From Auanema rhodensis (Eukaryota; Animalia; Nematoda): a stretch of 64,000 nt of DNA. Under the pieces are notes generated by a model. The model saw only the letters and a program-made list of their open reading frames with translations, did not search any database and was not told where the DNA came from. Below are positions 700-54,372 of this stretch, piece by piece; position 1 is the first letter of the stretch; each line of letters starts with the position of its first letter. The stretch spans positions 9,052,001 to 9,116,000 of the forward strand of contig OZ059899.1 in NCBI GenBank assembly GCA_964057225.1, written 5' to 3'. A program made the translations under genes and the position numbers.

Positions 700-2035
700 A
701 GTAGAGAGCCGTGCAAAATTTACTAACCACGCCCCCAAACAGCTGTCAAAAACATACTTTTGGGGGCGTCAGCTGCTAAAAACATACTTTGGGGCGCGTC
801 AGCTGTCAAAAACATATTTTTGAGCGTCAGCTGTTAAAATCATATTTTGGGATCATGGTTCATGGATTCTCCTTTTTTAAATTTAAAAATCATGATTTAA
901 AGCATGATATGGGTGTAAAAGTATACTATGAATAATATATGAGCTATTAAGCAAAGTTTAAAAAGCCTAAATGTTTTACAGAGATGGCTGTTGTTTATGG
1001 CACAAACGGTAAACAATAATGTTTAAAGAGATGTAAAAACTAATTAATATGCAGATTGTTTACAGGTTCAGAGTGCGCCAACTGCTGGCAACTGTCGATC
1101 AGATGAGTATATCTGCATAAATATGCTGTAAAATCTAATTAATAAAAGAATTTCATCAGCAAACTTGATTGTAACACAATGGGTTGTACTTTACAAAAAT
1201 CTTTGTATAAAAGGTTGGCAATTTTGCTTCATTTACATTTCAGCTCTGCCAACTATCCGAGGATCCGACGTTTCACCATCTCCTGCCACTCTTTGCCAAT
1301 CGCCATAGACTGCTCCTCTCTGCAAGTTTGCCTTAATTTTCAGAAAGTTGGATCTTTAGCGGAAATGAAGCGTGCTGTACTTGCTGATGTGACAAATGTT
1401 GTGCGCAAATCGCCTGAACCTGAAGTACCGCGACCACCCACACCAGCTCCAAATTTCACAAGTTTTGGTATGAACCTTAACTTGTATTTTTTTTAATCTT
1501 TAATTTAGATTCACCAATAAAGCAGATGGAGATTCTGAGAGAGAGCATTCCACCAAAGAGTGTATTAATGAGACCAATTTGTCTCTGCAAAACTTATAGG
1601 GAATCATTGCAGGTTATAGACGAGTATCACTGTTTCAGCCTCTGTATAAAGTGTAGAGGAAGGAATGATGCGTTGGGTCTTTTGAAGGAATTTCGTCATT
1701 ATAAGCCCGAAAACTTTTCTATTAATGTAAGCTTGCATATTTATTTATTTTCAATTTTATCATTTTTTAGATGCGCTCTTATAACACCATGACGTGCAAG
1801 CAATTGTTGAACAATATGGGCTATATTGTTATATATGCAGATGAGGCTACTGTAAAGACTTTTGGTTATAAGTAGAATGTATTCTACTTTAAACTAAGTC
1901 CAGAAGCACTCAACCTGAACATGTTTATCCGCTTTGATCCTTCATTTTGACTACAACAAGCACAAATAGTACAATTGGCGTTTTATTCTTGTTTTGTTAT
2001 GTGGCATTTTTATATTCTCAGCCGTAACATTTTTT
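700..2035 (+). mobile_element. Truncated Maverick integrase-side arm (TIR plus accessory gene)
   Basis: Starts AGTAGAGAGCCGTGC after the same gtgtgcgta junction seen at 44086 and 48325; the AT-rich TIR block is deleted near 908; fused to an LTR at ~2036. Confidence 0.85.
1365..1950 (+). pseudogene. D-box/Cys-cluster Maverick accessory gene, inactivated copy (exons 1365-1467, 1509-1726, 1771-1950)
   Basis: GT-AG introns; TAG at 1873-1875 where other copies have CAG; CKTC changed to CKTY. Confidence 0.8.
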
Positions 2036-13155: not shown

Positions 13156-13167
13156 AGTTGTAGCATA

Positions 13168-19832: not shown

Positions 19833-20426
19833 ATGAAGCGTTCCGCTCTTGTTGATGTAGAGAATATTGTACCTTCGACACCGGAACCGGATGTTCCACG
19901 ACCACCCACACCAGGACCCAACTTTGCTGCCACATTCTTTGGTAAGGTTTTATTTTTGTTATCAATTATTTTTTGTTTAGACACACCAAAAAAGCAGGTA
20001 CAAATCTCAAAGGATAGCTCTCCACAACAGCCTGTAGTTATGAGACCAATATGTCTCTGCAAAACTTGTAGGGATACATTGCAAGTCGTAGACGAGTACC
20101 ACTGTTTCAGCCTCTGTGTCAAGTGTAGAGCGAGGAATGATGCCTTAGGGCTTTTAAAAGTTTTCCGTCATTATAAACCTGAAAATTCAACAATCAATGT
20201 AAGATTATAAAATTATTAATTCTAATTATTATTTTTTCTTTCACAGATGCGTTCTTATTCTAGCATGTCATCAAAACAATTGTTGAATAATATGGGTTAC
20301 ATTGCCATTTATACTGATGAGTCAACTGTCAAGTCTTTTGGTTATAAGCAGAATGTGTTCTACTTTAAATTAAGTCAACAGGCGCTCAACTTGAATATGC
20401 TTATCCGTTTTGATCCATCGTTTTGA
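19833..20426 (+). CDS. D-box/Cys-cluster accessory protein, variant B, 168 aa (exons 19833-19941, 19981-20198, 20247-20426)
   Basis: Same intron positions and phases as variant A; MKRSALVDVEN; CLCKTC..CVKC; open to TGA. Confidence 0.8.
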
Positions 20427-21455: not shown

Positions 21456-22447
21456 AGTAGAGAGCCGTGCAAAATTTACTAACCACGCCCCCAAACAGCT
21501 GTCAAAAACATATTTTTGGGGGCGTCAGCTGCTAAAAACATACTTTTGAGGCGCGTCAGCTGTCAAAAACATATTTTTGAGCGTCAGCTGTTAAAATCAT
21601 ATTTTGGGATCATGGTTCATGGATTTTCCTTTTTTAAATTTAAAAATCATGATTTAAAGCATGATTTTTTTTTAAAATCAAATTTAAATATGCGTTTTCA
21701 AATTTATGTATATATTTTTAATTATTTTTAAATATATTAAGTAAAAATAAAAATCTTAATTTTAAATATTTAAATTATATTTAAATTTTATATATATATA
21801 TAAATTATATTTAAACTTTAAATATTTAAATTATATTTAAATTTTATATATAAATTATATTTAAATATTTAAATATGTAAATTTGTTTATACATTTTATT
21901 TATTTATCATATTTATTAATAATGTTTGTTTACTTATTTTGTTTATTTTTTATTGTATTGTATTTGTATTGTTTTTATTTTAAAAAACAGTAAAATTTTT
22001 GCATGTATATCGTTTTGTTCACCGTACTTGTTATGGGTAATTCAATGGAACACATATCGAAGGTTAATTCGATAAGAACGATATGAAATACAAAATTCAA
22101 TGGAACACATATCGAAGGTTAATTCGATAAGAACGATATGAAATACAAAATTTAATGGAACACATATCGAAAGATAATTCGATAAGAACGATATGAAATA
22201 CCAAAATTCAATGGAACACATATCGAAAGTTAATTCGATAAGAACGACATTAAATTATTAATTTTTGAAATTGCGAATTGTTATTAATTATATTTATTCT
22301 AACAAGTAAAGGTTTCAAATTATAATAAAAGATTAGTTTTAAACTTTATGTTACTAATATAACAATACAATAACTCTATAGAGCACACATTGAAGGTAAA
22401 TACGACGGGATTAACAAACAGTTGCGCTGACCTCAATGAAACGCATA
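21456..22447 (+). repeat. Left TIR (imperfect, ~0.99 kb)
   Basis: Reverse complement of ~36137-37086; GC box, 4x CAGCTG, AT-only tract, 55-bp repeats. Confidence 0.85.
22039..22247 (+). repeat. 55-56-bp tandem repeat x4 with internal TATCGAA-N6-TTCGATA palindrome
   Basis: Units start at 22039, 22094, 22149, 22205; 1-3 copies in the other TIRs. Confidence 0.9.
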
Positions 22448-22643
22448 AAGTTAATTTAATAAGAACTAATAACAAAAATTAATCCGACGGGGACAATAAA
22501 AACAGATGTATTCAATAAGCTTATTTATTTTAAAGTTTATCGCAACTGCTAGTTTTGACAGCTGTACCCAAATCCATGTTACATAACAAATTACAATGCC
22601 AACAGCAATGTGTAGACTGATATATTCATTATATCAAGGTACA

Positions 22644-25600
22644 ATGGCTGCTAATAGGTTGTGTCTTTTTGATTATTTGTTTGTAAACTTTTTCTTTTTT
22701 CAGTTATAAACGTTTATGTGAAGAGCTAGGATTTGATTATGAAGAGATTAATCAGCTCAGGTAATTTAACAATATTTTGAATCTTTATATATATTTTGTT
22801 TTTTAGTAAACGTATAAAGTTTACCGAGGCTGGTGGGATCGAGCTCTGTGAGCCCACATCACCCACTTTTAACAGTGGGCCCTCATCATCAAGGGTTATT
22901 GAAGTAATAACCTTGGATGACAGTGATGAGTAAGCGATATTAAAAATTATAACAATTAGTTTTTTCTTTTTAAGAGAATGGGATCCCGCTACCCCATCAA
23001 CCAGTGGAGGGCAAGTCGGATATGGAGCGGCATTCAACGATGTCTGTAAAATAGAGGTGCGATCTTTTATTTACATATCATTTCGTAATATATCTTTTGA
23101 AACATGAAATTTTCTCTTGCTCCCATTGCATATTTTGAAAACATTTTGAAATTTATTTCTCTTTTTCAATTGCATTCATAAAATTCTCTCTCTCTCATCT
23201 TTACATTTCATCTCAATCTATATCTTTTATCAAACAAATTGCAAGTATTTTGAAACTTATATATTCATTCTTTTGAACAGCATTCATTTTAAAATCTTTA
23301 CATTTCATCTCACTATATATCTTTCTTTCAACCAATTTTGAATTCTTACAAATTATAAATATTTCAAACATTTTGAACTAGTAAAATAATAAAACACAAT
23401 CATGACCTTCTCATTTATTTTTAAACATTAACAAATGTTTATAAAAGAAAAAACTTTATATTTAAAAATCAAATGCCATTTATTTTTAATAAAAGAATAT
23501 AAAAATAATTTAAAGAAAAGTAAATTTATTAAAAGTTATAAACAAACATTATTTATATTTAAACTAAATATCTAAACTAAATAACCATTATAAAAAGTGT
23601 GTATTATAGTGGTCACACCGACGCATAAAACGCACTGGTCGGTTTACCAACGTGGTCGTTAGATCGCTCACGTTCCCACATTTGGAAAACATTAATGAGC
23701 CAATGCATGTTGTCATGCCGCGGCTATTTAATGAGTTCCTTGATCGGTGCCTTGCTGAAAGTGGTGTGCCAGATAAACAAAAAGCACTATTTTGTTTATC
23801 AATAGAGCACCCATCCTTTGAAAAGGGATCCATATTTATGGATTTCCGTAGAAGGGAGCATTTGGATGGCGTTGCCATCATGAATGCCATCAGCAAGGTA
23901 CAGCAGTCAAAGCGAGAGGCTGTAATTAGCCAGGCAATGAATATTGAAATGTATGTGTTTGATGAGAGACCAGTGCAGCCAAGCCTGATGCCTGGTGAAG
24001 GTAGAGTTGGTTTCTATTTTGATGCCGAACTCAAAATACCTGGCACAATTGAAAACACTGACACTCATTGCCTGGCTAGAGCAGCAGTTGTGGGAATGTG
24101 GAGAGCCGATGAAGAGGCAGCAGAAGATGTTGTTGAGAAGAGGAGGATTCAAAATCTTCGTCGCAACTACATCTTGTTGCCAAATCAACCACATCATATC
24201 AATTTATTGAATAGGTGTGGTATTTCTGTACATTTACCAAATTATAATTTGAACCATTTAAATATTATTGCAAGTTGTAATACAGACTATAAGTTTGTAG
24301 TATACGCTAGGCCACCTGGACAGCGTATGTACGCTATTCAGCGTATCTTTAATGAAACGGCTAGCAAAGTGGTAACACTAGGCTACCGAAATAATCATTA
24401 TGACTGTATTACAACTTGTAGTAGATCACAGATTTTTGATGGTATTATATGCCAACACTGTAAATTATCTTACAAAACAGTGTTGCATAGATGTAAAGCC
24501 AAGTGTAAGAAATGCCACACCTTAAAATGTAATTCGATGGAAAATGTGGTTGAAAGTAGCATAAGATGTGATAGTTGTAGAGTTTTGTTTAAAACTCGTC
24601 AATGCTTTGACAGGCATATTAGAAAAACATGTCGAATGTTTAAGGTAATTTAAAAAATATATATAAAATTTTACAAGACTAAATTCAGACATGTGAAAAC
24701 TGTGATCATTATCACAGGGTGCGTGCTGATAGACCGCACAATTGCAATGAAAAATTTTGCAAAAAGTGTGGTCAGACAAAGCCTGAAGATCACTCTTGTT
24801 GTTGGGTACCACCTAACGACAAGAAGAAGGATCAGTTAAAAAAGAGGCAAGAGAAATACAAGGTTTGTATTTTACATCTTTACAAGTGTAATACTTACTT
24901 GTTTAAGATTATATTCTATGACTTTGAAACGGTTGTGTTAAAAAGCGGTACAAATGTTCATGAATATGCAGATGAACAATGGCCCAATATGGTTGTGTAT
25001 AATAAATTTTGTGAAAGTTGTATAGACGCCAACTCATGTGAAAAATGCACAACCAAGGAGGGCCATTTTGGGTACCAACAAGGTGATAGTGAATGGTCTG
25101 TAACAGATCGTTTCCTTGATTGGTTACTCAACTCTGTTGAGAATGATAATGCAATTTTGATTGCGCATAATGGTTCACGCTTTGACATACATTTCTTGGT
25201 GTCTAGGCTGATAAACCGTGGTATATATCCTGATCCAATTTTAAATGGGACCAAGATTATAAGCATGGTTGTCAAGCCTTTAAGAGGTCAAAAATTTAAT
25301 CATTTATATTTTAAAGATAGTTATTTATTAGTGCCTTTACCCCTATCAGCGTTACCCAAGGCATTTGGTGTACCTGATATGAGTAAAGGACAGTTTCCTT
25401 ACCTCTATAATCACCCAATAAATTATGGCAAAGTGTTGCCATCTTTACCACCAAAACAGTACTATTGTACTGCTAGAATGAAAGCAGAAGACCTAGCTTC
25501 ATTCGATATTTGGTATGAAGAGCGTAATCAAAGAGCGTTTGATTTTGATGAAGAGCTTTTGGAATATTGTAGGACAGATGTCCGTATTTTAACCAACTGT

Positions 25601-27835
25601 ATGAAAGTTTACATGAAGTTGGCAACCGCCACCACTGGCTGGAACCCTGTCATACAATGTATGACATTTGCCAGTTTCTCTTTATTCCAGGCAAGTTTTT
25701 TAAAATACAAGCATTTTCAAAACTATTATATTACAGTTGAAAATGAATCACATTAAAGAGAACCAAGTGGGTATTCTGCCCGAGACTGGTTATTATGCCG
25801 GTCAAAAGCAGAGTATAATAGCCATAAAGTATATAAAATGGCTAGAACAAGGACTGGGCCGCCCATTAATGCATAAGCTTAATGGTGGCGAATTTGCAGT
25901 GAGAGTAGATGGCCATCGCTATCTACTCGATGCTTATGACCCCGTTGCCAATCATGGCTATGAGGTGAGTAATTTGTAATAAATGTAAAAAATGCAAATT
26001 TTTGTAGATTAATGGCTGTATCTATCATGGCTGCCCCCAGTGCACCAACAAGAGCGCTATAGCACCAGGCAGAAATGGTGAAACAATGGAAGAGGTAATT
26101 GTGACTTTTTTAATCATTTTAATTTTTGAAATTTAGGTTTATGATAAAACCATGAAAAGGCTTGAAGCAATTCAAAGCCAAGGCATTAGTGTTACCACAG
26201 TGTGGGAGCACGAAATTAATGCTCAAATTTCGGCCAATGAAGAAATGGCGAAATTTATGCGTGAAACAAATGTTGTTACACGCTTGGCACCTAGAGATGC
26301 CTTTACCGGTGGCCGCACCCAGACATATAAGCTTTTGGCACAAGCTTCGGATAGATACTCGCTCGAGTATGTGGACTTTTGTTCACTATATCCATATGTC
26401 ACCGCTTTTGATGCCTATTACCCAGTAGGTAATCCCAAAGTTATTACTGAGGGTTTCAAAAGCTTTGAGACATGTTGCCCATACAAGGGGCTAGTAAAAT
26501 GTGACGTGCTTGCACCCACAAATTTGCTGTACCCTGTATTAGGCACACGTATTGGCGGTAAACTTATTTTTACAAACTGCCGCACTTGTGCAGTCAAAAG
26601 TAAAAATGTAGCATGTGACCACCAAAATGATGTAAATGCTAGAAAGCTGCATCTAACTGTGACACATGTTGAGCTCGAGTGTGCCATACAACGTGGCTAT
26701 AAAGTGCTTAATGTGCATGAGGTGTGGCACTGGGAAGAATGGCAACAAGGCGGCCTGTTTAAAGAATTTGTACAAAAGTACATAAAAATTAAACAAGAGG
26801 CGTCGGGCTGGCCAAAGCCAAACATGACAGAGGAAGAAAAGGTATGTTTTAATAAAAGTATCACATTAAATAGAATTTTACAGGTAATATATCTCCAAGA
26901 GCACGAGGAGAACACTGGTGTTGCTCTGGAGAGCAATAAAATTGAAAAGAATGCTGCCATGCGTAGCATTGCCAAACTGCAGCTAAATAGGTTTGTAAAC
27001 TTTTTAAAACAATACATTACAAATTTGCTCATAGTGTCTGGGGTAAAATGGGTCAAAGACCTGATAAAGCCCAAACCAAGATTATTGGTGTTGAGGACCC
27101 AGAAATTGGTAGGATCATTACTGATCCTGCAAGGGAACTCACTGGGTTCAAAATTGTGGATAATGTTGCGTACTGCACAACAGTACCAGAGGATTCACAT
27201 TTGGCGCCACCGCCTTTTACAAATGTAGCTATTGCGGCCTATACAACCGCTCATGCAAGGCTACTATTGTATAAGGCAATGGAGAAAATTGGAAAGAATT
27301 TGGTGTATACAGGTAATTTTATACTTGTATTCAATTTAAACTTACATTATTTAGACACGGATTCTCTAATTTATCAAAGATGCCTAGATGAGCCAGATCC
27401 AATTGAGGATATGAAGGGTGAATGGTTAGGTAAACTAACCTCTGAAATACCCGATGGTTGGTCAATGACCAAGTTTGTGTCACCAGCGGCAAAAGTTTAT
27501 AGTTATAAACTTGTAAATGCAGCTGGTGATGTAAAATATGTAACAAAGGCAAAGGGAGTGGTAAGTACGAGCTTTGACTTTTCAAATAATTTTATAATTT
27601 TCAGACGTTGGACCACACGGCAGCGTCAGTGGTAAACTTTGAAAGTATGGAGCGACTGGTTCGCGGACTCGTTATGGATGGAGAGAAATTGGTTTTAAAA
27701 ACCAATACAACCTTGTTAAAGAGGCAACTCGGTGCCATATCCACAATGGATATGACAAAAAGTACTAGAGTCGTAATGGATAAACTTTGTTATCTACAAG
27801 ATTATAGTACTTTACCCTACGGTTATTGTGAATAA
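22644..27835 (+). CDS. polB: Protein-primed family B DNA polymerase, 14 exons: 22644-22657, 22704-22760, 22807-22929, 22975-23056, 23610-24644, 24689-24862, 24908-25690, 25737-25964, 26008-26094, 26137-26841, 26884-26990, 27035-27312, 27355-27560, 27605-27835
   Basis: Splicing restores YDFET (ExoI), HNGSRFD (ExoII), YCRTDV (ExoIII), DFCSLYP, KLQLNS|VWGK, YT|DTDS; OTU-like HCLARA..HYD; Vsr-like YEINGCIYHG..VWE insert; phases consistent. Confidence 0.88.
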
Positions 27836-27972
27836 TATATTTGAATTTATAAATTTTTATCTTGTATATATTTGTATTTATAAAATTTTATCATTGTACA
27901 TGTATTTATTTTTAAAAATAGTTGTATTAATAAATTTTATTCTTAAATCTTTTAAAGAATTTATTACATACA

Positions 27973-29307
27973 TTACAAACTGGTATCAATATATGGAGCA
28001 CGATTGTTGTCAATTGAAAGAATAGAGTCATACTCTGCATAAACAATTGCATATAAGCCCTCTTGCGGCGTTTGTTGACCAAATTCCAATTTCAAGGCTA
28101 CATTACCTTGTCGTATAACATCAAATAACTCTGACGAATGCACAGTAGGAGAAATATCAAATACAAAAAATGTGAAACCAGCTTTATACATTGCTGGTGT
28201 AATACCATTGGATGAATCTGTACGACCAAGTCCCAAACCTTCCAGCATGTCAATATATGCTGTGGCATAGGAAGATCGCCATTCTAAATTATAAGGACGG
28301 GTAGGTATTACCCTATTGTTGAGCGTCAAGTATATATTTTTCAAATCAAACGGTTTAAAGTTGAATGGCGAATGTTTAAAAGTACCATTATAAGCGTGTG
28401 CGCCGACAAGACCTACTACAACACGTTTTGGTGTATGAGACGTGAATAATATATTATTAGGTGAATCCAAGCGGCCTCCTTCTATGAAATAAGAGCGCAT
28501 TTTCACTGATGTCATGGGGTAGTGTATTCGATCCTTTGCGAGTTTATCTTCTATAGCCATAGCTAATCCAGCGTTTAGATCAAACTCTTGAATGAGCAAA
28601 TGTACATCGCTGATATCTACTTTCAAATTTGGAAACTCCTCCTTTAATGTAGTATCCTTGTTTTCATTATTCCAGCCTAGAGTGTCAATTAAAAAGTTAT
28701 CACGGTTTGGATATGCAGTTAGCTCCATTTTTGAATAGTTTACAAACAGTCGCTCTTGATTAAATAGGTCGATACTGACGGGAGCAGCCATCTCACACAA
28801 TATGCCATTTTTTACAAGCGCTTGACGCGTTCTAAATCCAGCACTGGATGCATTATCTATATATCTATCAGCATAATAGCCTGATATGGCAAGTTTGCTC
28901 TCTTTAACATCGTTGCTATACATTAAAATATTCTCGATATATGTTTTATAGGCATGATTCACGGTAGAGTCATACACGCTAACATCACCAATTTTCAAAT
29001 GATACGAATGTATTAAACTGGCAGCAAATTGTTGACATGGTGCAAAAACAAGGTTGTCTGGTACTGGATCACCGTTTGTGGTTACAATTTTAAATTTTAC
29101 ATTCAACCAACATCTTCTCAGATTGAGGAATGATTTGGAATTTTGAGCTATAACAAATTCCCATGGTCCTTGAGGAAGAAAAGTATTTTTCAAAGGGACT
29201 TGTACAGTACGAGTGGATTCAACACCTAATGCCGACGCAGGTATTTCACCATAGTTGATATTAGGTAAAAGGGCTTGTGCTGATTTTGAATCTATCAATT
29301 TAGCCAT
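27973..29307 (-). CDS. Double jelly-roll major capsid protein (444 aa)
   Basis: GPWEFVI, HAYKTYIENIL.YS, PKRVVVGLV, YNG..SPFNFKPF, FFVFDISP, IVYAEY; Polinton MCP pattern. Confidence 0.88.
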   Translation of the reverse strand: MAKLIDSKSAQALLPNINYGEIPASALGVESTRTVQVPLKNTFLPQGPWEFVIAQNSKSFLNLRRCWLNVKFKIVTTNGDPVPDNLVFAPCQQFAASLIHSYHLKIGDVSVYDSTVNHAYKTYIENILMYSNDVKESKLAISGYYADRYIDNASSAGFRTRQALVKNGILCEMAAPVSIDLFNQERLFVNYSKMELTAYPNRDNFLIDTLGWNNENKDTTLKEEFPNLKVDISDVHLLIQEFDLNAGLAMAIEDKLAKDRIHYPMTSVKMRSYFIEGGRLDSPNNILFTSHTPKRVVVGLVGAHAYNGTFKHSPFNFKPFDLKNIYLTLNNRVIPTRPYNLEWRSSYATAYIDMLEGLGLGRTDSSNGITPAMYKAGFTFFVFDISPTVHSSELFDVIRQGNVALKLEFGQQTPQEGLYAIVYAEYDSILSIDNNRAPYIDTSL

Positions 29308-29760
29308 TTAAATGTGAAACGACCGCTCACGAGTGATGCACAACCGCTTATGAGGTTTTGTGGTTTTGCGTCGTCGCCGTTTGCCCAAGCCGGTAAGATC
29401 TCGTATAGCTTGCCGGCCGGCTGTTTTAAGAGTTTCCTTGATATTATCGCCTTTCAGCACCCCATCGACAATTTCATTACCAGTTTTCAGCAACTGTCCG
29501 CCAAGAGGTGAATTTACAACTGGACTATTGCTTACAGCACTGGATAAGGCGTTTCTTCCGGCATTGATGAGATTTTGGGCTATAGGTGATTGAATGATGC
29601 GTGGTAGAAATGATGCCAAAGTTGCCAAAATACCACCCAAACCATGACCCCTCTGCATTCCACGTTGAAACATCATTCCGCTAAATGGGGCGCCACCCAT
29701 TTGTTGATTTAAAAGTGTTGTCCATTGAATAGAGTTGACATCCAAAAGGAGGTGCGGCAT
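29308..29760 (-). CDS. Putative virion core/membrane-lytic precursor (150 aa)
   Basis: QQMGG, QRGHGLGG followed by an amphipathic helix, LTGLG followed by KRRRRK; directly upstream of MCP. Confidence 0.7.
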   Translation of the reverse strand: MPHLLLDVNSIQWTTLLNQQMGGAPFSGMMFQRGMQRGHGLGGILATLASFLPRIIQSPIAQNLINAGRNALSSAVSNSPVVNSPLGGQLLKTGNEIVDGVLKGDNIKETLKTAGRQAIRDLTGLGKRRRRKTTKPHKRLCITRERSFHI

Positions 29761-29811
29761 ATCGAACCGCACGCGCGCAATACAAAAGTTACACTAGATC
29801 ATTCTACTAAA

Positions 29812-30267
29812 ATGTATTCGTCTGAAATAGTATCACTATTGCAATCTGTCCCCAGCACTCGGAAACTATTCCTCGGTGTATATAGCGCTGATACTCTACC
29901 CAAAACGCGTCGTAAAAACTTTGCACTTGTCGTAAATACTGACACACATGATAAACCAGGCACACATTGGCAGGTCATCTTTGTCCGTAACAAGCAAGCC
30001 TATTTTTTCTGTAGCTTGGGATATAAAATGAACAAGTACATTCAAAATTATCTGGCCAAATATAAAAAGGTAAAAATTAATACTTGCAAACCACAACGTT
30101 TAATTGAATACACTTGTGGTGGCTATGTGGTATTTGTAATACTAATGTTGTCGGCTGGTAATTCATTTGAAAGCATTTGTTCATTTTTTAAACTATTGAA
30201 AAATGATGATGTCTTTATTAAAGCGTTTATGCATAAAGTATTCGACTATAAATTGGCTACTATATAA
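29812..30267 (+). CDS. Adenain-like cysteine protease (151 aa)
   Basis: FLGVYSAD, VNTD...GTHW, Q...TCGGY. Confidence 0.9.
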   Translation: MYSSEIVSLLQSVPSTRKLFLGVYSADTLPKTRRKNFALVVNTDTHDKPGTHWQVIFVRNKQAYFFCSLGYKMNKYIQNYLAKYKKVKINTCKPQRLIEYTCGGYVVFVILMLSAGNSFESICSFFKLLKNDDVFIKAFMHKVFDYKLATI

Positions 30268-30308
30268 GAAATTTGTCATTAATAACCTGCTACATTACGT
30301 GGTCAGTT

Positions 30309-30479
30309 ATGAATATTCCTTGTCACTGTGAATTATGTGTCAAATACACGTTGGAGCAATCTAAACCAGCGCCTTTATACAGGAGAATGTTGAAATGTAT
30401 TTCAGTGCCATTTATTAAAGGTATAGCATTGGGATTGGGCTTTTGTACAACACTAGTCATATTATTGCTCATTATATAA
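30309..30479 (+). CDS. Small CxCxxC protein with C-terminal TM helix (56 aa)
   Basis: MNIPCHCELC..GIALGLGFCTTLVILLLII; N-terminus conserved with substitutions in variant B (39010 minus). Confidence 0.6.
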   Translation: MNIPCHCELCVKYTLEQSKPAPLYRRMLKCISVPFIKGIALGLGFCTTLVILLLII

Positions 30480-30520
30480 AAGTGGGTTGATTGCGTGTGG
30501 TCGTTTTTCATTTTCCTCTA

Positions 30521-30985
30521 ATGGAACTTTTATGTAACAAATATTGTGGTACATGCAAGGAAATATTTTCTTCAACCAAGCATTTTAGTGATCACGTTTT
30601 GAAAAGACATGCAGGGATTCAACCCATATGTAACAATTATATCAGCAATGCTGACGTTATTCAAAAATATGGACATTTGGATGGTGTTCGTAGACGTTTG
30701 TGCCCTCATTGTAGTGAAACTTTTGGAACAAGATTCAATTGTGAGCGTCATATTCGGCGTATTCATAATAATAATGGAACGAATGGTGAAGATGGTGATG
30801 GAAATGATACCAGCAAACCCTTTGAAAAAGCTGAGGAGTTTGTACATTCAACCCAATCAAAAAGATGCCGCAGCAATAGTGACGGAGAACATTCACAACA
30901 CGAGCCGAGCGACAAACAAAACTGCCCTAAACTATCTTTTAAACCTTCGAAAATAAAAATGTGGTATTGTATAACTGTTGAATAA
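30521..30985 (+). CDS. C2H2 zinc-finger protein (2 fingers, 154 aa)
   Basis: CGTC..F....F..H....H and CPHC..F......RH....H. Confidence 0.75.
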   Translation: MELLCNKYCGTCKEIFSSTKHFSDHVLKRHAGIQPICNNYISNADVIQKYGHLDGVRRRLCPHCSETFGTRFNCERHIRRIHNNNGTNGEDGDGNDTSKPFEKAEEFVHSTQSKRCRSNSDGEHSQHEPSDKQNCPKLSFKPSKIKMWYCITVE

Positions 30986-30990
30986 AACGT

Positions 30991-31848
30991 TTATTTCATA
31001 TTTTTAACATGCAATGTAACAACTGTAGAACCATAATTAAATTGCATAGGACGACCAAATTCATCTAAAATTTCAATACGTATGGTATCGAGTGTTTGTC
31101 TAGTGATTGGTACATAACGAATAGGATTAAATGTTTTGGCAATCATTTTACCAAATTCAGTAGGAGGTGGTACAGGCAAACATGCAAGTAAATTAGCTTT
31201 CACATTACCAAGAATGGAATATTCTACAATATCACAATATATATACATTGTATTAATGTTATTTGAAAAATCAATGGGACGCCTGGCTATTATTGTATCG
31301 TTGATGTTTTTATTTTCAAAACCAAGAAAATATGCAAAATCATCACCAAGCGTTGCATTCATTAATAGTCGCTTGCTTGTTACAAACTCTATGCGCTGCA
31401 ATGTTTTGTTAAACTGAAATGTGGCGTCTGCGAGCATTTCCTCCACTAGCTTAGCCTCAGCCTGGCGATTATTATACCATTTTTTTACATCTTCATCTTT
31501 ATCTATTAAACTTTTTATACGTGCTTCTTCCTCAGCGCCAAGAGGCTTTGTATTGTTGGCGATAAATGATTCTCTTCCAGCATTGATTCCGCGTATTATT
31601 TCATCACCATTTGCATAGTTGCCTTTAGGCAAGTGTAGAATAAATTTTCTATTGGAAAAACGTAGTGTATAAGATAAATCTTTTTGAACATTTAATATAG
31701 AACAAGGAAAAATGATGTCTGTCAGCCCAATGCAATATCTATTATTGCGTAGCCTTAGTGTTTCAGGTAATCTGGTAAGAAACACTGATGATGTATTACT
31801 TTTTTCAGAGTCAACTGATGATGGAAGAGTAATGTAAAAATCATCCAT
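30991..31848 (-). CDS. Minor capsid (penton-like) protein (285 aa)
   Basis: FYITLPSS, YIYCDIVEYS.LG, YVP....DTIRIEI.D..G, VTLHVK. Confidence 0.85.
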   Translation of the reverse strand: MDDFYITLPSSVDSEKSNTSSVFLTRLPETLRLRNNRYCIGLTDIIFPCSILNVQKDLSYTLRFSNRKFILHLPKGNYANGDEIIRGINAGRESFIANNTKPLGAEEEARIKSLIDKDEDVKKWYNNRQAEAKLVEEMLADATFQFNKTLQRIEFVTSKRLLMNATLGDDFAYFLGFENKNINDTIIARRPIDFSNNINTMYIYCDIVEYSILGNVKANLLACLPVPPPTEFGKMIAKTFNPIRYVPITRQTLDTIRIEILDEFGRPMQFNYGSTVVTLHVKNMK

Positions 31849-31927
31849 GACAAACCACCACTTGATACGTGTACACTATTGCAAATGAAATCATTTGCAT
31901 TTTAGCTACATTTACGAGTGGTTGATT

Positions 31928-32575
31928 ATGGTTTTCAGCTTCAAACTACCCAGTCAGACAACTTTAATAGGTGCTACCCAATGCGGTAAAACAACCCTCA
32001 TAAAGCACATATGTGAAAATACTGAAAAGTTTTTCAACGTCCCCATTGATAGAATATTCTGGTTCAGTCAATGTGGGTCATCGTCAGGTGTACCAATAAA
32101 TGATGAGCGTTTAATAATTATTCAAGGGCCTCCTGATCCTGATTTGATAAAAGAACAAAAGGGAGTAAATACTATACTAGTGCTGGATGATTTGATGAAC
32201 TTTTTTTCATCGAATAAAGCAGCAAAGGAATTACTCAACAACATTTTTACAGTATGGGCTCATCACTGGAATTTGGCAGTGTTTAATCTTGTGCAAGCGG
32301 CATTTCAACTGGACAGGACCAGTCGAATCAATAGTACATATATAATACTGATGAAAAGTCATTCAGATATATTACAAATACGTAATTGTCTGCAGCAATT
32401 ATTTGGGCCACGTTTCAAAAATGCTCTAGAGGCGTATGATGATGCAATGTCTACTCCCTATAGTCATTTACTGATTGACAATCATCCTTTAACAAGTGAG
32501 AAGCAGCGTATACTATCTGATATAACAGCGGAGAACCCTATTGTTTATGTTGCCAGAAATGTGTTTAGTGTTTAA
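31928..32575 (+). CDS. A32/FtsK-like genome packaging ATPase
   Basis: Walker A GATQCGKTT, Walker B ILVLDD, HHWN..VQ, RINSTY. Confidence 0.9.
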   Translation: MVFSFKLPSQTTLIGATQCGKTTLIKHICENTEKFFNVPIDRIFWFSQCGSSSGVPINDERLIIIQGPPDPDLIKEQKGVNTILVLDDLMNFFSSNKAAKELLNNIFTVWAHHWNLAVFNLVQAAFQLDRTSRINSTYIILMKSHSDILQIRNCLQQLFGPRFKNALEAYDDAMSTPYSHLLIDNHPLTSEKQRILSDITAENPIVYVARNVFSV

Positions 32576-32587
32576 AGTGCTTGTTCA

Positions 32588-32896
32588 ATGAGTGGTCGTA
32601 TTTTGTCAAATTTCAACTTTTTGTCTTCTTGCGCCAAAACTCCTTGTTCTGTTTCCTCATTTTCTTTTGCACAAATTGAAATTATTGTTGAAATTGTATT
32701 TAATATTGTGAAAAATAATAATTTTCTTTTAACTAACAAGGAATATAAAACCCTCTTGCCCATATCTTCATTATTACGTCAAATAGCTTTGATACGCACA
32801 CCGGAAAAGGCTAAATCATTATTGGCAACGCTTTCACACAAACAATTGAAAACAATAGTTACATGTGGTATTGCCTATTTTGGTTTTAAATCATGA
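32588..32896 (+). CDS. Conserved 102-aa Maverick protein
   Basis: Conserved in three copies; IVEIVFNIVK motif; ATGA overlap with the next gene. Confidence 0.7.
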   Translation: MSGRILSNFNFLSSCAKTPCSVSSFSFAQIEIIVEIVFNIVKNNNFLLTNKEYKTLLPISSLLRQIALIRTPEKAKSLLATLSHKQLKTIVTCGIAYFGFKS

Positions 32897-33609
32897 AGCT
32901 CAACCATAAATATCGACTAATTCCTGTCGACGAGGAAACAGTTAATATAGACAAGTTTGATGCAGAGCTCAAGCTTTTACGAGAAAATAGAGCTATACCC
33001 GACTATAAAAAGGCTGAACTATACGAAGACTTGATTGCTCGTCTCAAAAACTATAGAGAAAGTATAGATGCGCCCATATCAGTACAAGTGGAAAATGCTG
33101 ATCCACCTCTATTGCCAGAATACAAGTTGCCAAGAAAGTATAACAATTTGTGGGAGAAATTTCCAGAGGTGCGCACAAACAAGAATAACCAACTTGTGAT
33201 TAATAATGAGGCTGTACCAAACACGAATATTACAAAAATTTTAGATTTTGTATTGGATAAAACAAAAACGGAGCCCAATGGATTTTCAGTTTTGTCAAAG
33301 TTTTTAGCCAGTAAAGGCGTACCAAGTTCTAACAAGAAACAAACTAGAAGAGAGTCGGCTGACAATGATTCAGTTGACGTTGTAACTAGAGCTGAACCGG
33401 CTGTTACAGACTTGGACTCTACTATATTACCTAGAACGCCTCGTCATCGTAAAGCTGTTATTAGATATTCACCATCACCGGTTCGTACACTGAAAAGTAA
33501 AAGGTCAAAGACTTTTGATACTGCCGCCGAATCATATTACACACCACAAGAAGGAGACTCACAGAATGGCCAAGGTCGTAAAAGGTTCTACATTAGATTA
33601 TGGAAATGA
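32893..33609 (+). CDS. Basic 238-aa protein, putative core protein
   Basis: K.Y.LIP start, S/T-P-R-rich tail, QNGQG|RKR and terminal W; conserved across variants. Confidence 0.75.
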   Translation: MKLNHKYRLIPVDEETVNIDKFDAELKLLRENRAIPDYKKAELYEDLIARLKNYRESIDAPISVQVENADPPLLPEYKLPRKYNNLWEKFPEVRTNKNNQLVINNEAVPNTNITKILDFVLDKTKTEPNGFSVLSKFLASKGVPSSNKKQTRRESADNDSVDVVTRAEPAVTDLDSTILPRTPRHRKAVIRYSPSPVRTLKSKRSKTFDTAAESYYTPQEGDSQNGQGRKRFYIRLWK

Positions 33610-34633
33610 TATTTTGGCGAGCATTTATTACGATATAAAACACCCAGCTTCATATACATCAGCCAAGAATTTATTATCGCAAGCACGAAAACATGGCATT
33701 TCAAAGGTACAAGTTGATGATTTTTTGCAAGATTCTGAAACTTTTACACGACATAAACCAACCAGAATGCGTATGCAGACTAGAAAGACTAGAGGATGTG
33801 GTCGATTTCTAACAGTGCAAGCAGATTTGGTTGATATGCAAAAATATAAAAAATTAAACGACGGCTATGCTTACATGTTGACCATGATTGATGTTTATAC
33901 ACGCATGTTATATGTTAGGCCTTTGAAAACTAAAGGTGGTATAGAGGTTGCTAGTGCATTTGAAAATTTATTCAAGAATTTTATACCAATTCAGTTGATT
34001 ACTGATAATGGCACAGAGTTTTATAATAGTCATTGTGAAAAACTATTCAAAAAGTTTGCCATACTGCACGGATCTACAAGTTCACCTCAAAAGGCTGCAA
34101 TGGTGGAGCGAGCAAATAGAACTTTAAAAACACGCATGATGAAATATCTCTATTACAAGAATAATCATCGATGGATTGATATCTTAGATGATTTGGTTGA
34201 AGGAATAAACAAATCTTATAACCGCTCCATAAAAATGCGGCCCATTGATGTTAAAGCAAATATATTCATTGAAGAATATGCACCAACTGTTAAAAGCCGC
34301 TTTAAAATTGGTGATACTGTTCGCATAAGCAAACATAGGCGTACTTTTGAAAAAAGCTACGAGTCTGGATATACAATGGAGCTGTTCACAATTGATGAGG
34401 TTGTAACCGGAAACCCAACCGTGTATAAACTTGTAGATTATAATGGTGAACGTATAAAGGGAATATTCTACGAACCTGAACTTGTCTTGGCTACTAATAA
34501 AAGCAACCAGTACTATATAGAAAAAGTTTTAAAAGAGCGTACTCGAAGCGGTAAACGTCAAGTATTTGTAAAATGGAGTGGATATCCCGACAACTTTAAT
34601 GAATGGATAGATGCAGAAAATTTAAATGTATAA
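33566..34633 (+). CDS. Retroviral-like (c-INT) DDE integrase with C-terminal chromodomain (355 aa)
   Basis: QADLVDM / ITDNG / VERANRTLK; YYIEKVL..VKWSGY..NEWI; in-frame ATG conserved in both variants. Confidence 0.92.
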   Translation: MAKVVKGSTLDYGNDILASIYYDIKHPASYTSAKNLLSQARKHGISKVQVDDFLQDSETFTRHKPTRMRMQTRKTRGCGRFLTVQADLVDMQKYKKLNDGYAYMLTMIDVYTRMLYVRPLKTKGGIEVASAFENLFKNFIPIQLITDNGTEFYNSHCEKLFKKFAILHGSTSSPQKAAMVERANRTLKTRMMKYLYYKNNHRWIDILDDLVEGINKSYNRSIKMRPIDVKANIFIEEYAPTVKSRFKIGDTVRISKHRRTFEKSYESGYTMELFTIDEVVTGNPTVYKLVDYNGERIKGIFYEPELVLATNKSNQYYIEKVLKERTRSGKRQVFVKWSGYPDNFNEWIDAENLNV

Positions 34634-34928
34634 TTTTTCAATGTTATAAACAATTGTAATTATAATAAATGATTTATTTGATATATCGCATAATGTAACA
34701 ATAAAAAACCAGCAAAATACAAACAACAATTCAACCTGGAAAAAAAAAATGTAGACTATTCAAATTTTCAAATTCTTACCAGTTGGTTGATCATTCGTCC
34801 TCAATTGATGAGCCATTGATGGATATTCGCAAGAGCTGGAAAAAAAAAATGTTACGGCTGAGAATATAAAAATGCCACATAACAAAACAAGAATAAAACG
34901 CCAATTGTACTATTTGTGCTTGTTGTAG

Positions 34929-35514
34929 TCAAAATGAAGGATCAAAGCGGATAAACATGTTCAGGTTGAGTGCTTCAGGACTTAGTTTAAAGTAGAATAC
35001 ATTCTGCTTATAACCAAAAGTCTTTACAGTAGCCTCATCTGCATATATAACAATATAGCCCATATTGTTCAACAATTGCTTGCACGTCATGGTGTTATAA
35101 GAGCGCATCTAAAAAAATTATAAAATTGAAAATAAATAAATATGCAAGCTTACATTAATAGAGAACTTTTCGGGCTTATAGTGACGAAACTCCTTCAAAA
35201 GACCCAACGCATCATTCCTTCCTCTACACTTTATACAGAGGCTGAAACAGTGATACTCGTCTATAACCTGCAATGATTCCCTACAAGTTTTGCAGAGACA
35301 AATTGGTCTCATTAATACACTCCTTGGTGGAGTGCTCTCTCTCAGAATCTCCATCTGCTTTATTGGTGAATCTAAATTAAAGATTTAAAAAAGACAAGTT
35401 AAGGTTCATACCAAAACTTGTGAAATTTGGTGCTGGTGTGGGTGGTCGTGGTACTTCAGGTTCAGGCGATTTGCGCACAACATTTGTCACATCAGCAAGT
35501 ACAGCACGCTTCAT
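34929..35514 (-). CDS. D-box/Cys-cluster accessory protein, variant A, 166 aa, 3 exons, intact
   Basis: MKRAVLADVTN, SPIK, TPPR, CLCKTC..CIKC; two GT-AG introns; upstream TATAAAAG. Confidence 0.82.
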
Positions 35515-36136
35515 TTCCGCTAAAGATCCAACTTTCTAAAATATAAGGCAAACTTGCAGAGAGGAGCAGTCTATGGCGATTGGCAAAGAGTGGCAGGAGA
35601 TGGTGAAACGTCGGATCCTCGGATAGTCGGCAGAGCTGAAATGTAAATGTAGCAAAATTGCCAACCTTTTATACAAAGATCTTTGTAAAGTACAACCCAT
35701 TGTGTTACAATCAAGTTTGCTGATGAAATTCTTTTATTAATTAGATTTTACAGCATATTTATGCAGATATACTCATCTCATCGACAGTTGCCAGCAGTTG
35801 GCGCACTCTGAACCTGTAAACAATCTGCATATTAATTAGTTTTTACATCTCTTTAAACATTATTTTTACCGTTTGTGCCATAAACAACAGCCATCTCTGT
35901 AAAACATTTAGGCTTTTTAAACTTTGCTTAATAGCTCATATATTAATCATAGTATACTTTTAAACCCATATTGTACCACAAAACATATGACTGCCAACGT
36001 TTTATATGTAAAAAATATTTCATTCTTTAATATTTAATAATGATTATATTACGAAACTAAAACTTTTGAAATGTTAAAATGATTATACTATATTTAAACC
36101 CCCACAGTGCAGTTATTACTGTTTATTAACCATCGA

Positions 36137-37086
36137 TATGCGTGGCGTTGAGGTCAGCGCAACTGTTTGTTAATCTTATTGTATTTACCTTCAATGTGTG
36201 CTCTATTTAGTTATTGTATTGTTATATTAGTAAAATAAAGTTTAAAACTAATCTTTTATTATAATTTGAAGCCTTTACTTGTTAGAATAAATATAATTAA
36301 TAACAATTCGCAATTTCAAAAATTAATAATTTAATGTCGTTCTTATCGAATTAACCTTCGATATGTGTTCCATTAAATTTTGGTATTTCATATCGTTCTT
36401 ATCGAATTAACTTTCGATATGTGTTCCATTGAATTACCCATAACAAGTACGGTGAACAAAATTATCTACATGCAAAAATTTTATTGATCTTTAAAATAAA
36501 AACAATACAAACACAATACAATAAAAAATAAACAAATCAAGTAAACAAACATTATTAATAAATATAATAAAGAAATAAATAAAATTTAAAAACAAATTTA
36601 TATATTTAAAATTTAAATATAATTTATATATAAAATTTAAAGTTTAAATATAATTTATATATATAAAATTTAAATATAATTTAAATAATTAAAGTTTAAA
36701 TAAAATTTATATATATATAAAATTTAAATATAATTTAAATATTTAAAATTAAGATTTTTATTTTTACTTAATATATTTAAAAATAATTGAAAATATATAC
36801 ATACATTTGAAAAAGCATATTTAAATTTGATTTAAAAAAAAAAAAAAATTAAAAAAAAAAATCAAAAAAAAAAAAAATCATGCTTTAAATCATGACTTTT
36901 ATATTTAAAAAAGGAAAATCCATGAACCATGATCCTAAAATATGATTTTAACAGCTGACGCTCAAAAATATGTTTTTGACAGCTGACGCGCCCCAAAAGT
37001 ATGTTTTTAGCAGCTGACGCCCCCAAAAGTATGTTTTTGACAGCTGTTTGGGGGCGTGGTTAGTAAATTTTGCACGGCTCTCTACT
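36137..37086 (-). repeat. Right TIR
   Basis: Inverted copy of the left TIR ending CTCTCTACT. Confidence 0.85.
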
Positions 37087-39818: not shown

Positions 39819-41332
39819 AGTAGAGAGCCGTGCAAAATTTACTAACCACGCCCCCAAACAGCTGTCAAAAACATACTTTTGGGGGCGTCAGCTGCTAAAA
39901 ACATACTTTGGGGCGCGTCAGCTGATTTTTTTTTTTTGATTTTTTTTTTTTAAATCAAATTTAAATATGCTTTTTCAAATGTATGTATATATTTTCAATT
40001 ATTTTTAAATATATTAAGTAAAAATAAAAATCTTAATTTTAAATATTTAAATTATATTTAAATTTTATATATATATAAATTTTATTTAAACTTTAAATAT
40101 TTAAATTATATTTAAATTTTATATATATAAATTATATTTAAACTTTAAATTTTATATATAAATTATATTTAAATTTTAAATATATAAATTTGTTTTTAAA
40201 TTTTATTTATTTCTTTATTATATTTATTAATAATGTTTGTTTACTTATTTTGTTTATTTTTTATTGTATTGTGTTTGTACTATTTTATTTGTATTTTTAA
40301 AGATCAATAAAATTTTTGCATGTAGATAATTTTGTTCACCGTACTTGTTATGGGTAATTCAATGGAACACATATCGAAAGTTAATTCGATAAGAACGATA
40401 TGAAATACCAAAATTTAATGGAACACATATCGAAGGTTAATTCGATAAGAACGATATAAAATACCAAAATTTAATGGAACACATATCGAAAGTTAATTCG
40501 ATAAGAACGACATTAAATTATTAATTTTTGAAATTACAAATTGTTATTAATTATATTTATTCTAACAAGTAAAAGTTTCAAATTAAAAGAAAAGACTAGT
40601 TTTAAACTTTATTTTACTAATATAACAATACAATAACTAAATAGAGCACACATTGAAGGTAAATACAATAAGATTAACAAACAGTTGCGCTGACCTCAAT
40701 GAAACGCATATCGATGGTTAATAAACAGTAATAACTGCACTGTGGGGGTTTAAATATAGTATAATCATTTTAACATTTCAAAAGTTTTAGTTTCGTAATA
40801 TAATCATTTTTAAATATTCAAGAATGAAATATTTTTACATATAAAACGTTGGCAGTCATATGTTTTGTGCTACAATATGGGTGTAAAAGTATACTATGAA
40901 TAATATATGAGCTATTAAGCAAAGTTTAAAAAGCCTAAATGTTTTACAGAGATGGCTGTTGTTTATGGCACAAACGATAAACAATAATGTTTAAAGAGAT
41001 GTAAAAACTAATTAATATGCAGATTGTTCACAGGTTCAGAGTGCGCCAACTGTTGGCAACTGTCGATGAGATGAGTATATCTGCGTAAATATGCTGTAAA
41101 ATCTAATTAATAAAAGAATTTCATCAGCAAACTTGATTGTAACACAATGGGTTGTACTTTACAAAAATCTTTGTATAAAAGGTTGGCAATTTTGCTACAT
41201 TTACATTTCAGCTCTGCCGACTATCCGAGGATCCGACGTTTCACCATCTCCTGCCACTCTTTGCCAATCGCCATAGACTACTCCTCTCTGCAAGTTTGCC
41301 TTATATTTTAGAAAGTTGGATCTTTAGCGGAA

Positions 41333-41931
41333 ATGAAGCGTGCTGTACTTGCTGATGTGACAAATGTTGTGCGCAAATCGCCTGAACCTGAAGTACCACG
41401 ACCACCCACACCAGCACCAAATTTCACTTCTTTCAACAAGTTTTGGTATGAACCTTAACTTGTCTTTTTTAAATCTTTAATTTAGATTCACCAATAAAGC
41501 AGATGGAGATTCTGAGAGAGAGGACTCCACCAAAGAGTGTATTAATGAGACCAATTTGTCTCTGCAAAACTTGTAGGGAATCATTGCAGGTTATAGACGA
41601 GTATCACTGTTTCAGCCTCTGTATAAAGTGTAGAGGAAGGAATGATGCGTTGGGTCTTTTGAAGGAATTTCGTCACTATAAGCCCGAAAAGTTCTCTATT
41701 AATGTAAGCTTGCATATTTATTTATTTTCAATTTTATCATTTTTTTTTTAGATGCGCTCTTATAACACCATGACGTGCAAGCAATTGTTGAACAATATGG
41801 GCTATATTGTTATATATGCAGATGAGGCTACTGTAAAGACTTTTGGTTATAAGCAGAATGTATTCTACTTTAAACTAAGTCCTGAAGCACTCAACCTGAA
41901 CATGTTTATCCGCTTTGATCCTTCATTTTGA
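41333..41931 (+). pseudogene. D-box accessory gene with a 10-nt frameshifting insertion in exon 1
   Basis: aatttcac[ttctttcaac]aagttttg versus other copies. Confidence 0.75.
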
Positions 41932-45582: not shown

Positions 45583-46170
45583 ATGAAGCGTGCTGTACTT
45601 GCTGATGTGACAAATGTTGTGCGCAAATCGCCTGAACCTGAAGTACCACGACCACCCACACCAGCACCAAATTTCACAAGTTTTGGTATGAACCTTAACT
45701 TGTCTTTTTTAAATCTTTAATTTAGATTCACCAATAAAGCAGATGGAGATTCTGAGAGAGAGGACTCCACCAAAGAGTGTATTAATGAGACCAATTTGTC
45801 TCTGCAAAACTTGTAGGGAATCATTGCAGGTTATAGACGAGTATCACTGTTTCAGCCTCTGTATAAAGTGTAGAGGAAGGAATGATGCGTTGGGTCTTTT
45901 GAAGGAATTTCGTCACTATAAGCCCGAAAAGTTCTCTATTAATGTAAGCTTGCATATTTATTTATTTTCAATTTTATCATTTTTTTTTAGATGCGCTCTT
46001 ATAACACCATGACGTGCAAGCAATTGTTGAACAATATGGGCTATATTGTTATATATGCAGATGAGGCTACTGTAAAGACTTTTGGTTATAAGCAGAATGT
46101 ATTCTACTTTAAACTAAGTCCTAAAGCACTCAACCTGAACATGTTTATCCGCTTTGATCCTTCATTTTGA
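45583..46170 (+). CDS. D-box accessory protein (3 exons, apparently intact)
   Basis: Same structure as 34929-35514. Confidence 0.78.
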
Positions 46171-49821: not shown

Positions 49822-50409
49822 ATGAAGCGTGCTGTACTTGCTGATGTGACAAATGTTGTGCGCAAATCGCCTGAACCTGAAGTACCACGACCACCCACAC
49901 CAGCACCAAATTTCACAAGTTTTGGTATGAACCTTAACTTGTCTTTTTTAAATCTTTAATTTAGATTCACCAATAAAGCAGATGGAGATTCTGAGAGAGA
50001 GCACTCCACCAAGGAGTGTATTAATGAGACCAATTTGTCTCTGCAAAACTTGTAGGGAATCATTGCAGGTTATAGACGAGTATCACTGTTTCAGCCTCTG
50101 TATAAAGTGTAGAGGAAGGAATGATGCGTTGGGTCTTTTGAAGGAATTTCGTCACTATATGCCCGAAAAGTTCTCTATTAATGTAAGCTTGCATATTTAT
50201 TTATTTTCAATTTTATCATTTTTTTTTAGATGCGCTCTTATAACACCATGACGTGCAAGCAATTGTTGAACAATATTGGCTATATTGTTATATATGCAGA
50301 TGAGGCTACTGTAAAGACTTTTGGTTATAAGCAGAATGTATTCTACTTTAAACTAAGTCCTGAAGCACTCAACCTGAACATGTTTATCCGCTTTGATCCT
50401 TCATTTTGA
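49822..50409 (+). CDS. D-box accessory protein (3 exons, apparently intact)
   Basis: Same structure as 34929-35514. Confidence 0.78.
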
Positions 50410-52769: not shown

Positions 52770-52781
52770 TGAACAAGCACT

Positions 52782-54367: not shown

Positions 54368-54372
54368 ACGTT

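Follow-up and report, generated by a model that had tools for sequence, protein, structure and literature searches.

Host Element and Cargo Slot

The window, which is the whole stretch of 64,000 nucleotides that was analyzed, holds a Maverick (Polinton) transposon with a small accessory gene next to its integrase. This gene is referred to here as the D-box gene, after an N-terminal match to the APC/C destruction box. The features that frame it are as follows.

21456..37086, no strand assigned: host element A, a Maverick of 15.6 kb that has terminal inverted repeats, with TGCGTG as its 6-bp target duplication
33494..34633, plus strand: Maverick integrase with a chromodomain, convergent with the D-box gene; Pfam rve and Chromo above cut-off
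34929..35514, minus strand: D-box gene, variant A, the reference copy (166 aa in the retained form)
39819-57941: further Maverick, rearranged, in which a 4.24-kb unit is repeated three times in tandem; its own 6-bp duplication is CACCGC

The integrase of a related element, B, is the insertion site of element A, and the two halves of B flank it (within 19300-39816). Its terminal repeats match over 759 columns at 86.8%, the terminal 24-mer is identical, and TGCGTG is found at both sides. The element contains pPolB, protease, ATPase, and capsid-like ORFs, as well as the chromodomain integrase. Pfam recognized the protein-primed PolB (DNA_pol_B_2, E 1.5e-22 and 6e-16) and the retroviral-like integrase (rve and Chromo, above cut-off), and the protease matched C5 below the cut-off (E 0.0015). 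Of the named relatives of the integrase, one from Auanema sp. is closest, matching at 69% across 55% of the query; Caenorhabditis remanei follows (46%). Four capsid-module ORFs match 32, 49, 26, and 36 of 101 integrase-bearing loci (E<1e-3); their capsid labels, given by no library, were assigned by size and co-occurrence, and by this assignment the capsid module (major and minor capsid, packaging ATPase, and adenoviral-type protease) was counted as present in element A.

Cargo of nematode Mavericks is described, in the available part of 10.1101/2022.07.12.499685, as intron-bearing genes between the terminal repeat and the integrase. The D-box gene has introns and sits between these two features. 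It also shows the lower conservation, relative to core genes, that characterizes such cargo: between elements A and B, pS and pN are 0.60 and 0.13 for the D-box gene, as against 0.24-0.32 and 0.03-0.06 for integrase, ATPase, and protease, with a 239-aa ORF of the element intermediate (0.49 and 0.12). The greater divergence of the D-box gene fits, without proving, cargo exchange between elements. Nematode Maverick cargo is further characterized by a GC-rich cargo region, host origin, and horizontal transfer between species; here GC content is 40% in the exons of the D-box gene, 37% in the core ORFs, and 32% in the cargo slot as a whole. In the rearranged Maverick at 39819-57941, the 4.24-kb unit comprises a terminal repeat, the cargo gene, and an integrase (i.e. 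a Maverick right end), and its three tandem copies account for three of the six D-box gene copies described below.

Further features were noted in the window. A predicted four-exon ORF (22644-23056, plus strand; introns of 46, 46, and 45 nt) lies between the left terminal repeat and pPolB; it is open at its 3′ end and may represent either a spliced pPolB start or a gene of its own in the position of the Oncoids discussed below. It contains several S/T-P sites and a hydrophobic-acidic stretch, VIEVITLDD, which we take to resemble a SUMO-interacting motif. The pPolB of element A (23610-27835, plus strand) is split into five ORF pieces, and its in-frame inserts are AT-rich and resemble short introns or may reflect decay; core genes of the C. 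plicata Maverick are described as intronless in the accessible text of 10.1101/2022.07.12.499685. A 164-aa Maverick ORF (30491-30985, plus strand) has C2H2-type zinc finger similarity below the cut-off (Pfam E 5.6e-5) and had no match at E<1e-3 in the 101 related loci. A Gypsy-type retrotransposon (8386-16872, minus strand) carries gag, pol, and an env-like region with matches to viral class III fusion protein families, namely Monjiviricetes_fusion at E 6.6e-13 and, below the cut-off, herpes glycoprotein B. Element A itself yielded no fusogen ORF. A tRNA-Arg(ACG) gene lies at 63672-63744.

Gene Copies, Variants, and Selection

The D-box gene occurs in six copies in the window, as an earlier note on this DNA had claimed, with ATGs mapped at 35514 on the minus strand and at 1365, 19833, 41333, 45583, and 49822 on the plus strand. 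The copies other than that at 35514 are listed below.

19833..20426, plus strand: variant B (168 aa), exons 19833-19941, 19981-20198, and 20247-20426
1365..1950, plus strand: A-type copy, broken; early stop in the last exon, with the 43-nt donor and one Cys lost
41333..41931, plus strand: A-type copy, broken by a frameshifting 10-nt insertion in exon 1
45583..46170, plus strand: A-type copy, intact, 163/166 identical to the 35514 copy
49822..50409, plus strand: A-type copy, intact, 164/166 identical to the 35514 copy

Only four of the six are intact, those at 1365 and 41333 being broken. The A-type copies are 97-99% identical to one another. The ATG context is alike in all six copies, and similarity between variants A and B starts at the ATG. 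The two variants share 123 of 166 residues and have the same intron positions, as had been proposed from the letters alone, and the intron phases match as well. Introns are 39-48 nt long with acceptors of the TTTCAG/TTTTAG type. Together with the integrase relatives, these introns point to a rhabditid nematode as the likely host.

The D-box gene is under purifying selection. The comparison of the two variants, which the earlier note had suggested as a check, gave a dN of 0.144 against a dS of 1.198, and the 95% bootstrap interval for pN/pS was 0.16-0.30. The Cys region and the last exon were the most constrained parts, with pN at 0.08-0.09; the first 56 residues were less so (pN 0.22-0.23).

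Transcripts and Splice Forms

Of five RNA runs that contain part of the locus, four (X1-X3 and X5) were aligned. RNA contigs X1-X3 derive from one study (depth 3-7, sample type guessed) and contain GT..AG joints, which shows that they come from RNA; a further run, X5, covers only a piece of the 3′ UTR. Aligned to the reference copy, they define the following features, all on the minus strand.

35412..35514: exon 1 of variant A, with the start codon, the D-box match, and a Pro-rich stretch; covered by X1 and X2
35372..35411: intron 1, 40 nt, GT..AG; joined in X1, while X2 has a loose end that matches
35285..35371: exon 2a, with SPIK and TPPR sites and the first half of the Cys cluster
35242..35284: 43-nt coding segment with GT..AG ends (exitron); joined out in X1 and X2
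35154..35241: exon 2b, 29 codons; pS 0.785 and pN 0.101 in the retained frame indicate purifying selection
35109..35153: intron 2, 45 nt, GT..AG; joined in all three contigs that cross it (X1, X2, X3)
34929..35108: last coding exon, 59 codons, opening with ATG in both variants; conserved C-terminal domain
34736..34779: 3′ UTR intron, 44 nt, GT..AG; joined in X1

Both introns that had been predicted were thus joined in the contigs, as the proposed RNA check required, but the three-exon model missed a third coding intron, at 35242-35284, which is present in both contigs that cross the Cys cluster (X3 ends before the segment). Removal of these 43 nt deletes Cys64, His75, and Cys76, shifts the frame, and costs half of the Cys cluster, leaving a product of 66 residues. 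The retained 166-residue form was found in neither of the two crossing contigs, and contigs drop minor isoforms. The short form keeps the D-box match and all four S/T-P sites shared by the variants, and its stop lies 77 nt before the next junction, which makes the transcript a possible target of decay. The tail differs by variant, with 66 aa in A and a predicted 77 aa in B. The ATG that opens the last exon lies 77 nt beyond the early stop; reinitiation there (59 aa) was considered as possible but is unsupported.

The 43-nt segment has the character of coding sequence. Variants A and B are identical at 37 of its 43 bases, the changes fall at codon positions 1 and 3 only and give three conservative substitutions, and its AT content is 53-58%, as against 78-85% in true introns. 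Since the segment and the 29 codons that follow evolve as protein in the retained frame, both splice forms likely exist, and selection points to translation of the 166-aa form. Variant B has a matching segment at 20068-20110 with the same GT..AG ends, as read from its sequence only. A and B do not differ in the five codons carrying the splice signals, an identity that is within chance (P 0.13-0.21); selection on the splice sites was accordingly not significant, and the 43-nt splice may be a cryptic event and not a selected one. No exitron-like donor/acceptor pair was present in the other ORFs of the element, which total 5787 nt.

At two listed sites the RNA does not agree with the 35514 copy and has alleles that occur in other copies; expression is therefore shown for the gene family and not for the 35514 copy, the RNA source being a sister copy or strain. 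The D-box gene is thus a real, transcribed, and spliced Maverick gene. The integrase had no RNA cover in four runs, a result that was given no weight because contigs cannot prove absence. A 54-codon upstream ORF (35536-35700, minus strand), in the same frame and ending just before the ATG, lies within the RNA-covered region and is not evident in variant B. Immediately upstream of the ATG, both variants have acceptor-like sites.

The D-box Match and Other Linear Motifs

The N-terminal motif of the reference copy is located as follows.

35482..35508, minus strand: D-box match RAVLADVTN (residues 3-11), extended consensus; RSALVDVEN in variant B

The minimal D-box consensus is RxxLxxxxN (PMC6534075, as far as its accessible text goes), and peptides derived from Hsl1, RAALSDITN and RAPLGDVSN, are reported in the available part of PMC12401543 to bind Cdc20 and drive degradation. 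The motifs of both variants are close to these Cdc20-binding peptides, with D6 and an aliphatic residue at position 7 both present. The statement that both variants begin with a D-box match whose consensus is fixed while its spacers vary was correct: A and B are identical at exactly motif positions 1, 4, 6, 7, and 9, with all four spacers changed. The probability of this pattern is 1 in 126, and RxxLx[DE][ILV]xN is expected from the composition of the element at 8e-6 per site, or 1.3e-3 per 166-aa protein, these chance figures holding for one preset motif where a reader may have looked for many. Conservation of the minimal R/L/N consensus alone was unremarkable (P 0.12). Among the 3160 residues encoded by the core ORFs of the element, the extended pattern did not occur; in 871,464 six-frame open residues of the 101 related loci it was found once, as compared with 221 occurrences of the minimal pattern. 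Conservation of the D-box region (pN 0.22) falls short of that in the Cys and C-terminal regions (pN 0.08-0.09) and in the adjoining Pro-rich stretch. As no homologues were found, conservation of the D-box rests on two variants. A strong, selectively retained D-box-like motif is supported.

Pro-directed CDK sites had also been proposed. S/T-P sites were indeed found at four matching positions in A and B, but the full CDK consensus is present in both variants only at SPIK/TPKK. Lysines near the D-box match are K2, K15, and K39 in A and K2, K40, K41, and K47 in B. Neither variant has a KEN box, an LxCxE motif, an RL tail, or a second degron; a loose ABBA-like sequence in the C-terminal domain (IVIYAD/IAIYTD) lacks the F of Fx[ILV][FY]x[DE]. 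The N terminus is a Pro-rich low-complexity stretch, and residues 1-30 had no secondary structure in an AlphaFold2 model that, at a mean pLDDT of 45, is too poor to rely on.

The Cys/His Cluster, the C-terminal Domain, and Homologue Searches

Downstream of the N-terminal region lies a predicted zinc site.

35226..35300, minus strand: Cys/His cluster C-x-C-x2-C-x10-H-C-x3-C-x2-C, residues 59-83 of the retained form

The pattern CLCKTC-x15-C(I/V)KC was read correctly at the outset, although the HC that it encloses had been overlooked; CKTC and C(I/V)KC form paired CxxC motifs, and the cluster would bind zinc. The C-terminal domain is conserved, as had been stated, 48 of the 59 last-exon residues being identical, and FDPSF is the terminal sequence of both variants.

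Neither a word-indexed protein search, in which the 125-aa read-through of exons 1-2 in variant B served as query, nor a full HMMER search of 1.84 billion representatives recovered a true homologue of the D-box gene. The one HMMER match of note (P0001, E 6e-4) was rejected, as it is a repetitive Thr/Ser/Pro-rich bacterial-type protein aligned through the low-complexity linker. A further word-indexed search, with the last-exon alignment against longer proteins, yielded 27 candidates, none at E<=1. The ESM Atlas, searched twice, and a set of viral contigs gave no homologue, and neither Pfam, searched with every exon, nor the PDB gave a match at E<=10. Searches of the 101 integrase-bearing loci by tblastn and DNA pattern were likewise negative (0/101), these loci being distant (integrase identity <=43%). 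Spliced orphan genes are poorly represented in the collections searched, so these results are weak evidence of absence. AlphaFold2 models had mean pLDDT values of 45 and 39, and fold searches with the latter, which returned nothing at E<=0.001, were given no weight.

Derivation of the Cys cluster from the N-terminal Cys/His motif of pPolB was considered and is unsupported: only the spacing is similar (pairwise E 0.44). With a profile of six pPolB-motif sequences, the score of exon 2 did not stand out from those of shuffles, 201 and 188 of 300 of which equaled it or more, and the same profile failed to score the window's own pPolB motifs.

Comparison with Known Systems

The nearest precedents, which the earlier note missed, are the nematode Maverick cargo slot with its N-terminal dosage modules and the Oncoids of adintoviruses. 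The WASP (protease) and KRMA (kinase) cargo families carry an N-terminal ubiquitin-like module that is suggested to limit protein dosage (10.1101/2022.07.12.499685, available in part). The D-box gene resembles them as an intron-bearing gene of the slot, more diverged than the core genes, and in its modular layout, with an N-terminal, turnover-linked part ahead of an effector domain. It differs in size (166 aa versus about 430), in having a linear D-box as its N-terminal module, and in the splicing out of a coding segment. No ubiquitin-like, protease, or kinase domain was found in it (Pfam and PDB at E<=10), and it was therefore not placed in either family.

Oncoids of adintoviruses and Polintons are, in the accessible text of PMC8502044 and PMC11071296, a class defined by motifs alone. 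As with these, the D-box gene encodes a small Polinton accessory protein in which a short linear cell-cycle motif stands beside paired CxxC motifs. It has no LxCxE/CK2 Rb-binding motif, is not upstream of pPolB, and carries a motif that points to the APC/C; assignment to the Oncoids was rejected on the LxCxE motif and the position, the paired CxxC being shared. No pairing of an Oncoid with a D-box appears in the available text of the two papers.

Among APC/C D-box substrates and decoys (the N termini of cyclin B and securin, Hsl1, Acm1, and Mes1), the portions of PMC12401543 and PMC6534075 available provide parallels for an extended R-x-x-L-x-D-[VIL]-x-N near the N terminus with S/T-P sites and lysines. 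The D-box gene differs in having no sequence homology to these proteins and a single candidate degron. Acm1/Mes1-type inhibitors carry KEN boxes. With one degron where these have several, and with no KEN box or strict ABBA motif, an Acm1/Mes1-type pseudosubstrate is not supported. Emi1 and Emi2 share the order of a D-box followed by a Cys-rich region (PMC4141206, in its accessible part), but the D-box of the Maverick gene is at the extreme N terminus and its ligands are C3-H-C3 rather than C6HC. Membership was rejected, since there is no F-box, no IBR match (Pfam E<=10), no C6HC, and no RL tail.

Splicing within the coding region yields zinc-binding long forms and truncated forms in HPV E6/E6*, SV40 small t/large T, and adenovirus E1A 13S/12S. 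The likeness to these spliced early genes of small DNA tumor viruses is an analogy of architecture only; no homology was found. No D-box gene of a Polinton or Maverick was described in the literature searched, a scope that left most subscription papers outside, and the supplements of two nematode Maverick papers list further uncharacterized cargo or ORFs and may include this family. The D-box gene is best regarded as an orphan cargo gene with a credible candidate degron and an unexpected internal splice.

Interpretation

The explanation preferred here, at a probability of roughly 0.45, is that an APC/C degron times or limits an orphan Cys/His effector, much as the ubiquitin-like module may do in WASP and KRMA, with splicing as an off-switch. 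The long form would accumulate while the APC/C is off (S, G2, and meiotic prophase); at mitotic exit or in G1, the APC/C with FZY-1 or FZR-1 would read the D-box and ubiquitylate nearby lysines, and phosphorylation of the S/T-P sites by CDK or MAPK could tune degradation. The predicted zinc-binding Cys/His and alpha/beta domain would modulate a host target during only part of the cell cycle, and the protein would act in the germ line or embryo, when the element replicates. Splicing of the 43-nt segment would lower output by truncation to the 66-residue peptide. The intron-bearing position in the cargo slot and the WASP/KRMA precedent for dosage modules were counted in favor of a timed effector, and the single degron with nearby lysines and no second degron was counted in favor of a substrate. 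Purifying selection, the pattern and rarity of the motif match, its closeness to the Hsl1-derived peptides, and the protein-like evolution of the spliced-out segment also speak for this explanation. Against it weigh the lack of homologues beyond two variants, the unremarkable minimal consensus, the weaker conservation of the D-box region, the absence of the 166-aa form from the contigs, a splice that may be cryptic, and RNA of low depth from one study and a sister copy or strain.

A degron on a substrate fits better than the Emi1-like or pseudosubstrate inhibitor that had been proposed, which is not supported: F-box, C6HC/IBR, RL tail, KEN, and strict ABBA are all lacking, and lysines flank the motif. 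Of the wider suggestion of a Maverick-encoded cell-cycle regulator, a real Maverick gene with a retained D-box-like motif is supported, whereas the reading as an APC/C inhibitor is not.

Less probable, although the strongest of the alternatives, is that the motif is inert for the APC/C and that the product, as orphan cargo (a captured host gene or an effector, like WASP and KRMA), works through its Cys and C-terminal domains, the N terminus being a linker or binding something else. Constraint does peak in the C-terminal 110 residues and is higher in the Pro-rich stretch than over the motif, which only two variants inform. D-box-like motifs are readily found in viral proteins; seven KSHV proteins have predicted D-boxes, and KSHV replication is APC/C-independent (PMC7307157, accessible in part). 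Against an inert motif stands a match to the extended consensus at residue 3 in which the conserved positions are exactly the consensus positions.

That the product inhibits the APC/C is improbable. The 66-residue form would here be a D-box decoy for the coactivator pocket, delaying mitotic exit or G1 and favoring replication of the element. It is the form seen in RNA, with the motif and the four shared S/T-P sites retained, and, in the parts of the sources available, D-box fragments at high dose inhibit the APC/C competitively (PMC6534075) and adenoviruses, relatives of Polintons, target APC/C-CDC20 via E4orf4 (10.64898/2026.02.13.705602). Known inhibitors, in contrast, use several degrons or extra modules, of which KEN, strict ABBA, RL tail, F-box, and C6HC are absent here, and lysines beside the motif favor turnover. 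The low contig depth, the early stop 77 nt before a junction with its possible decay, and a tail that differs between A and B also weigh against a decoy. More doubtful again is a combined scheme in which one splice would let the gene alternate between two products directed at the APC/C: a zinc effector timed by the cell cycle, and a free D-box peptide that as a decoy jams the mitotic ubiquitin ligase.

Finally, it is very unlikely that the gene is declining in this host, with the 43-nt splice as cryptic or host-imposed silencing and long-form selection stemming from replication elsewhere (another stage, host, or virion phase) in which the motif may have worked: no contig has the retained form, codon conservation accounts for that of the splice sites, two of six copies are broken, and pPolB is in several ORF pieces, but four copies are intact, the A types are 97-99% identical, contigs drop minor isoforms, and 5787 nt of other element ORFs contain no exitron-like donor/acceptor pair.

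Significance

The D-box gene offers a handle on the replication of Mavericks in animal germ lines and on the question of whether, like related DNA viruses, they steer the host cell. It does so in the form of a short peptide with a candidate degron and a splice that can be tracked across stages, and it would stand as a third type of cargo beside WASP and KRMA. If the degron works as in the preferred explanation, this would suggest that Maverick cargo repeatedly gains N-terminal turnover modules, ubiquitin-like in WASP and KRMA and a D-box here. If the short form were to inhibit the APC/C, it would be a transposon-encoded cell-cycle decoy. Were the two-product splice switch true, the D-box gene would become the first from a Polinton with demonstrated action on the cell-cycle engine, and a counterpart in worms to the spliced early oncogenes that small DNA tumor viruses carry.
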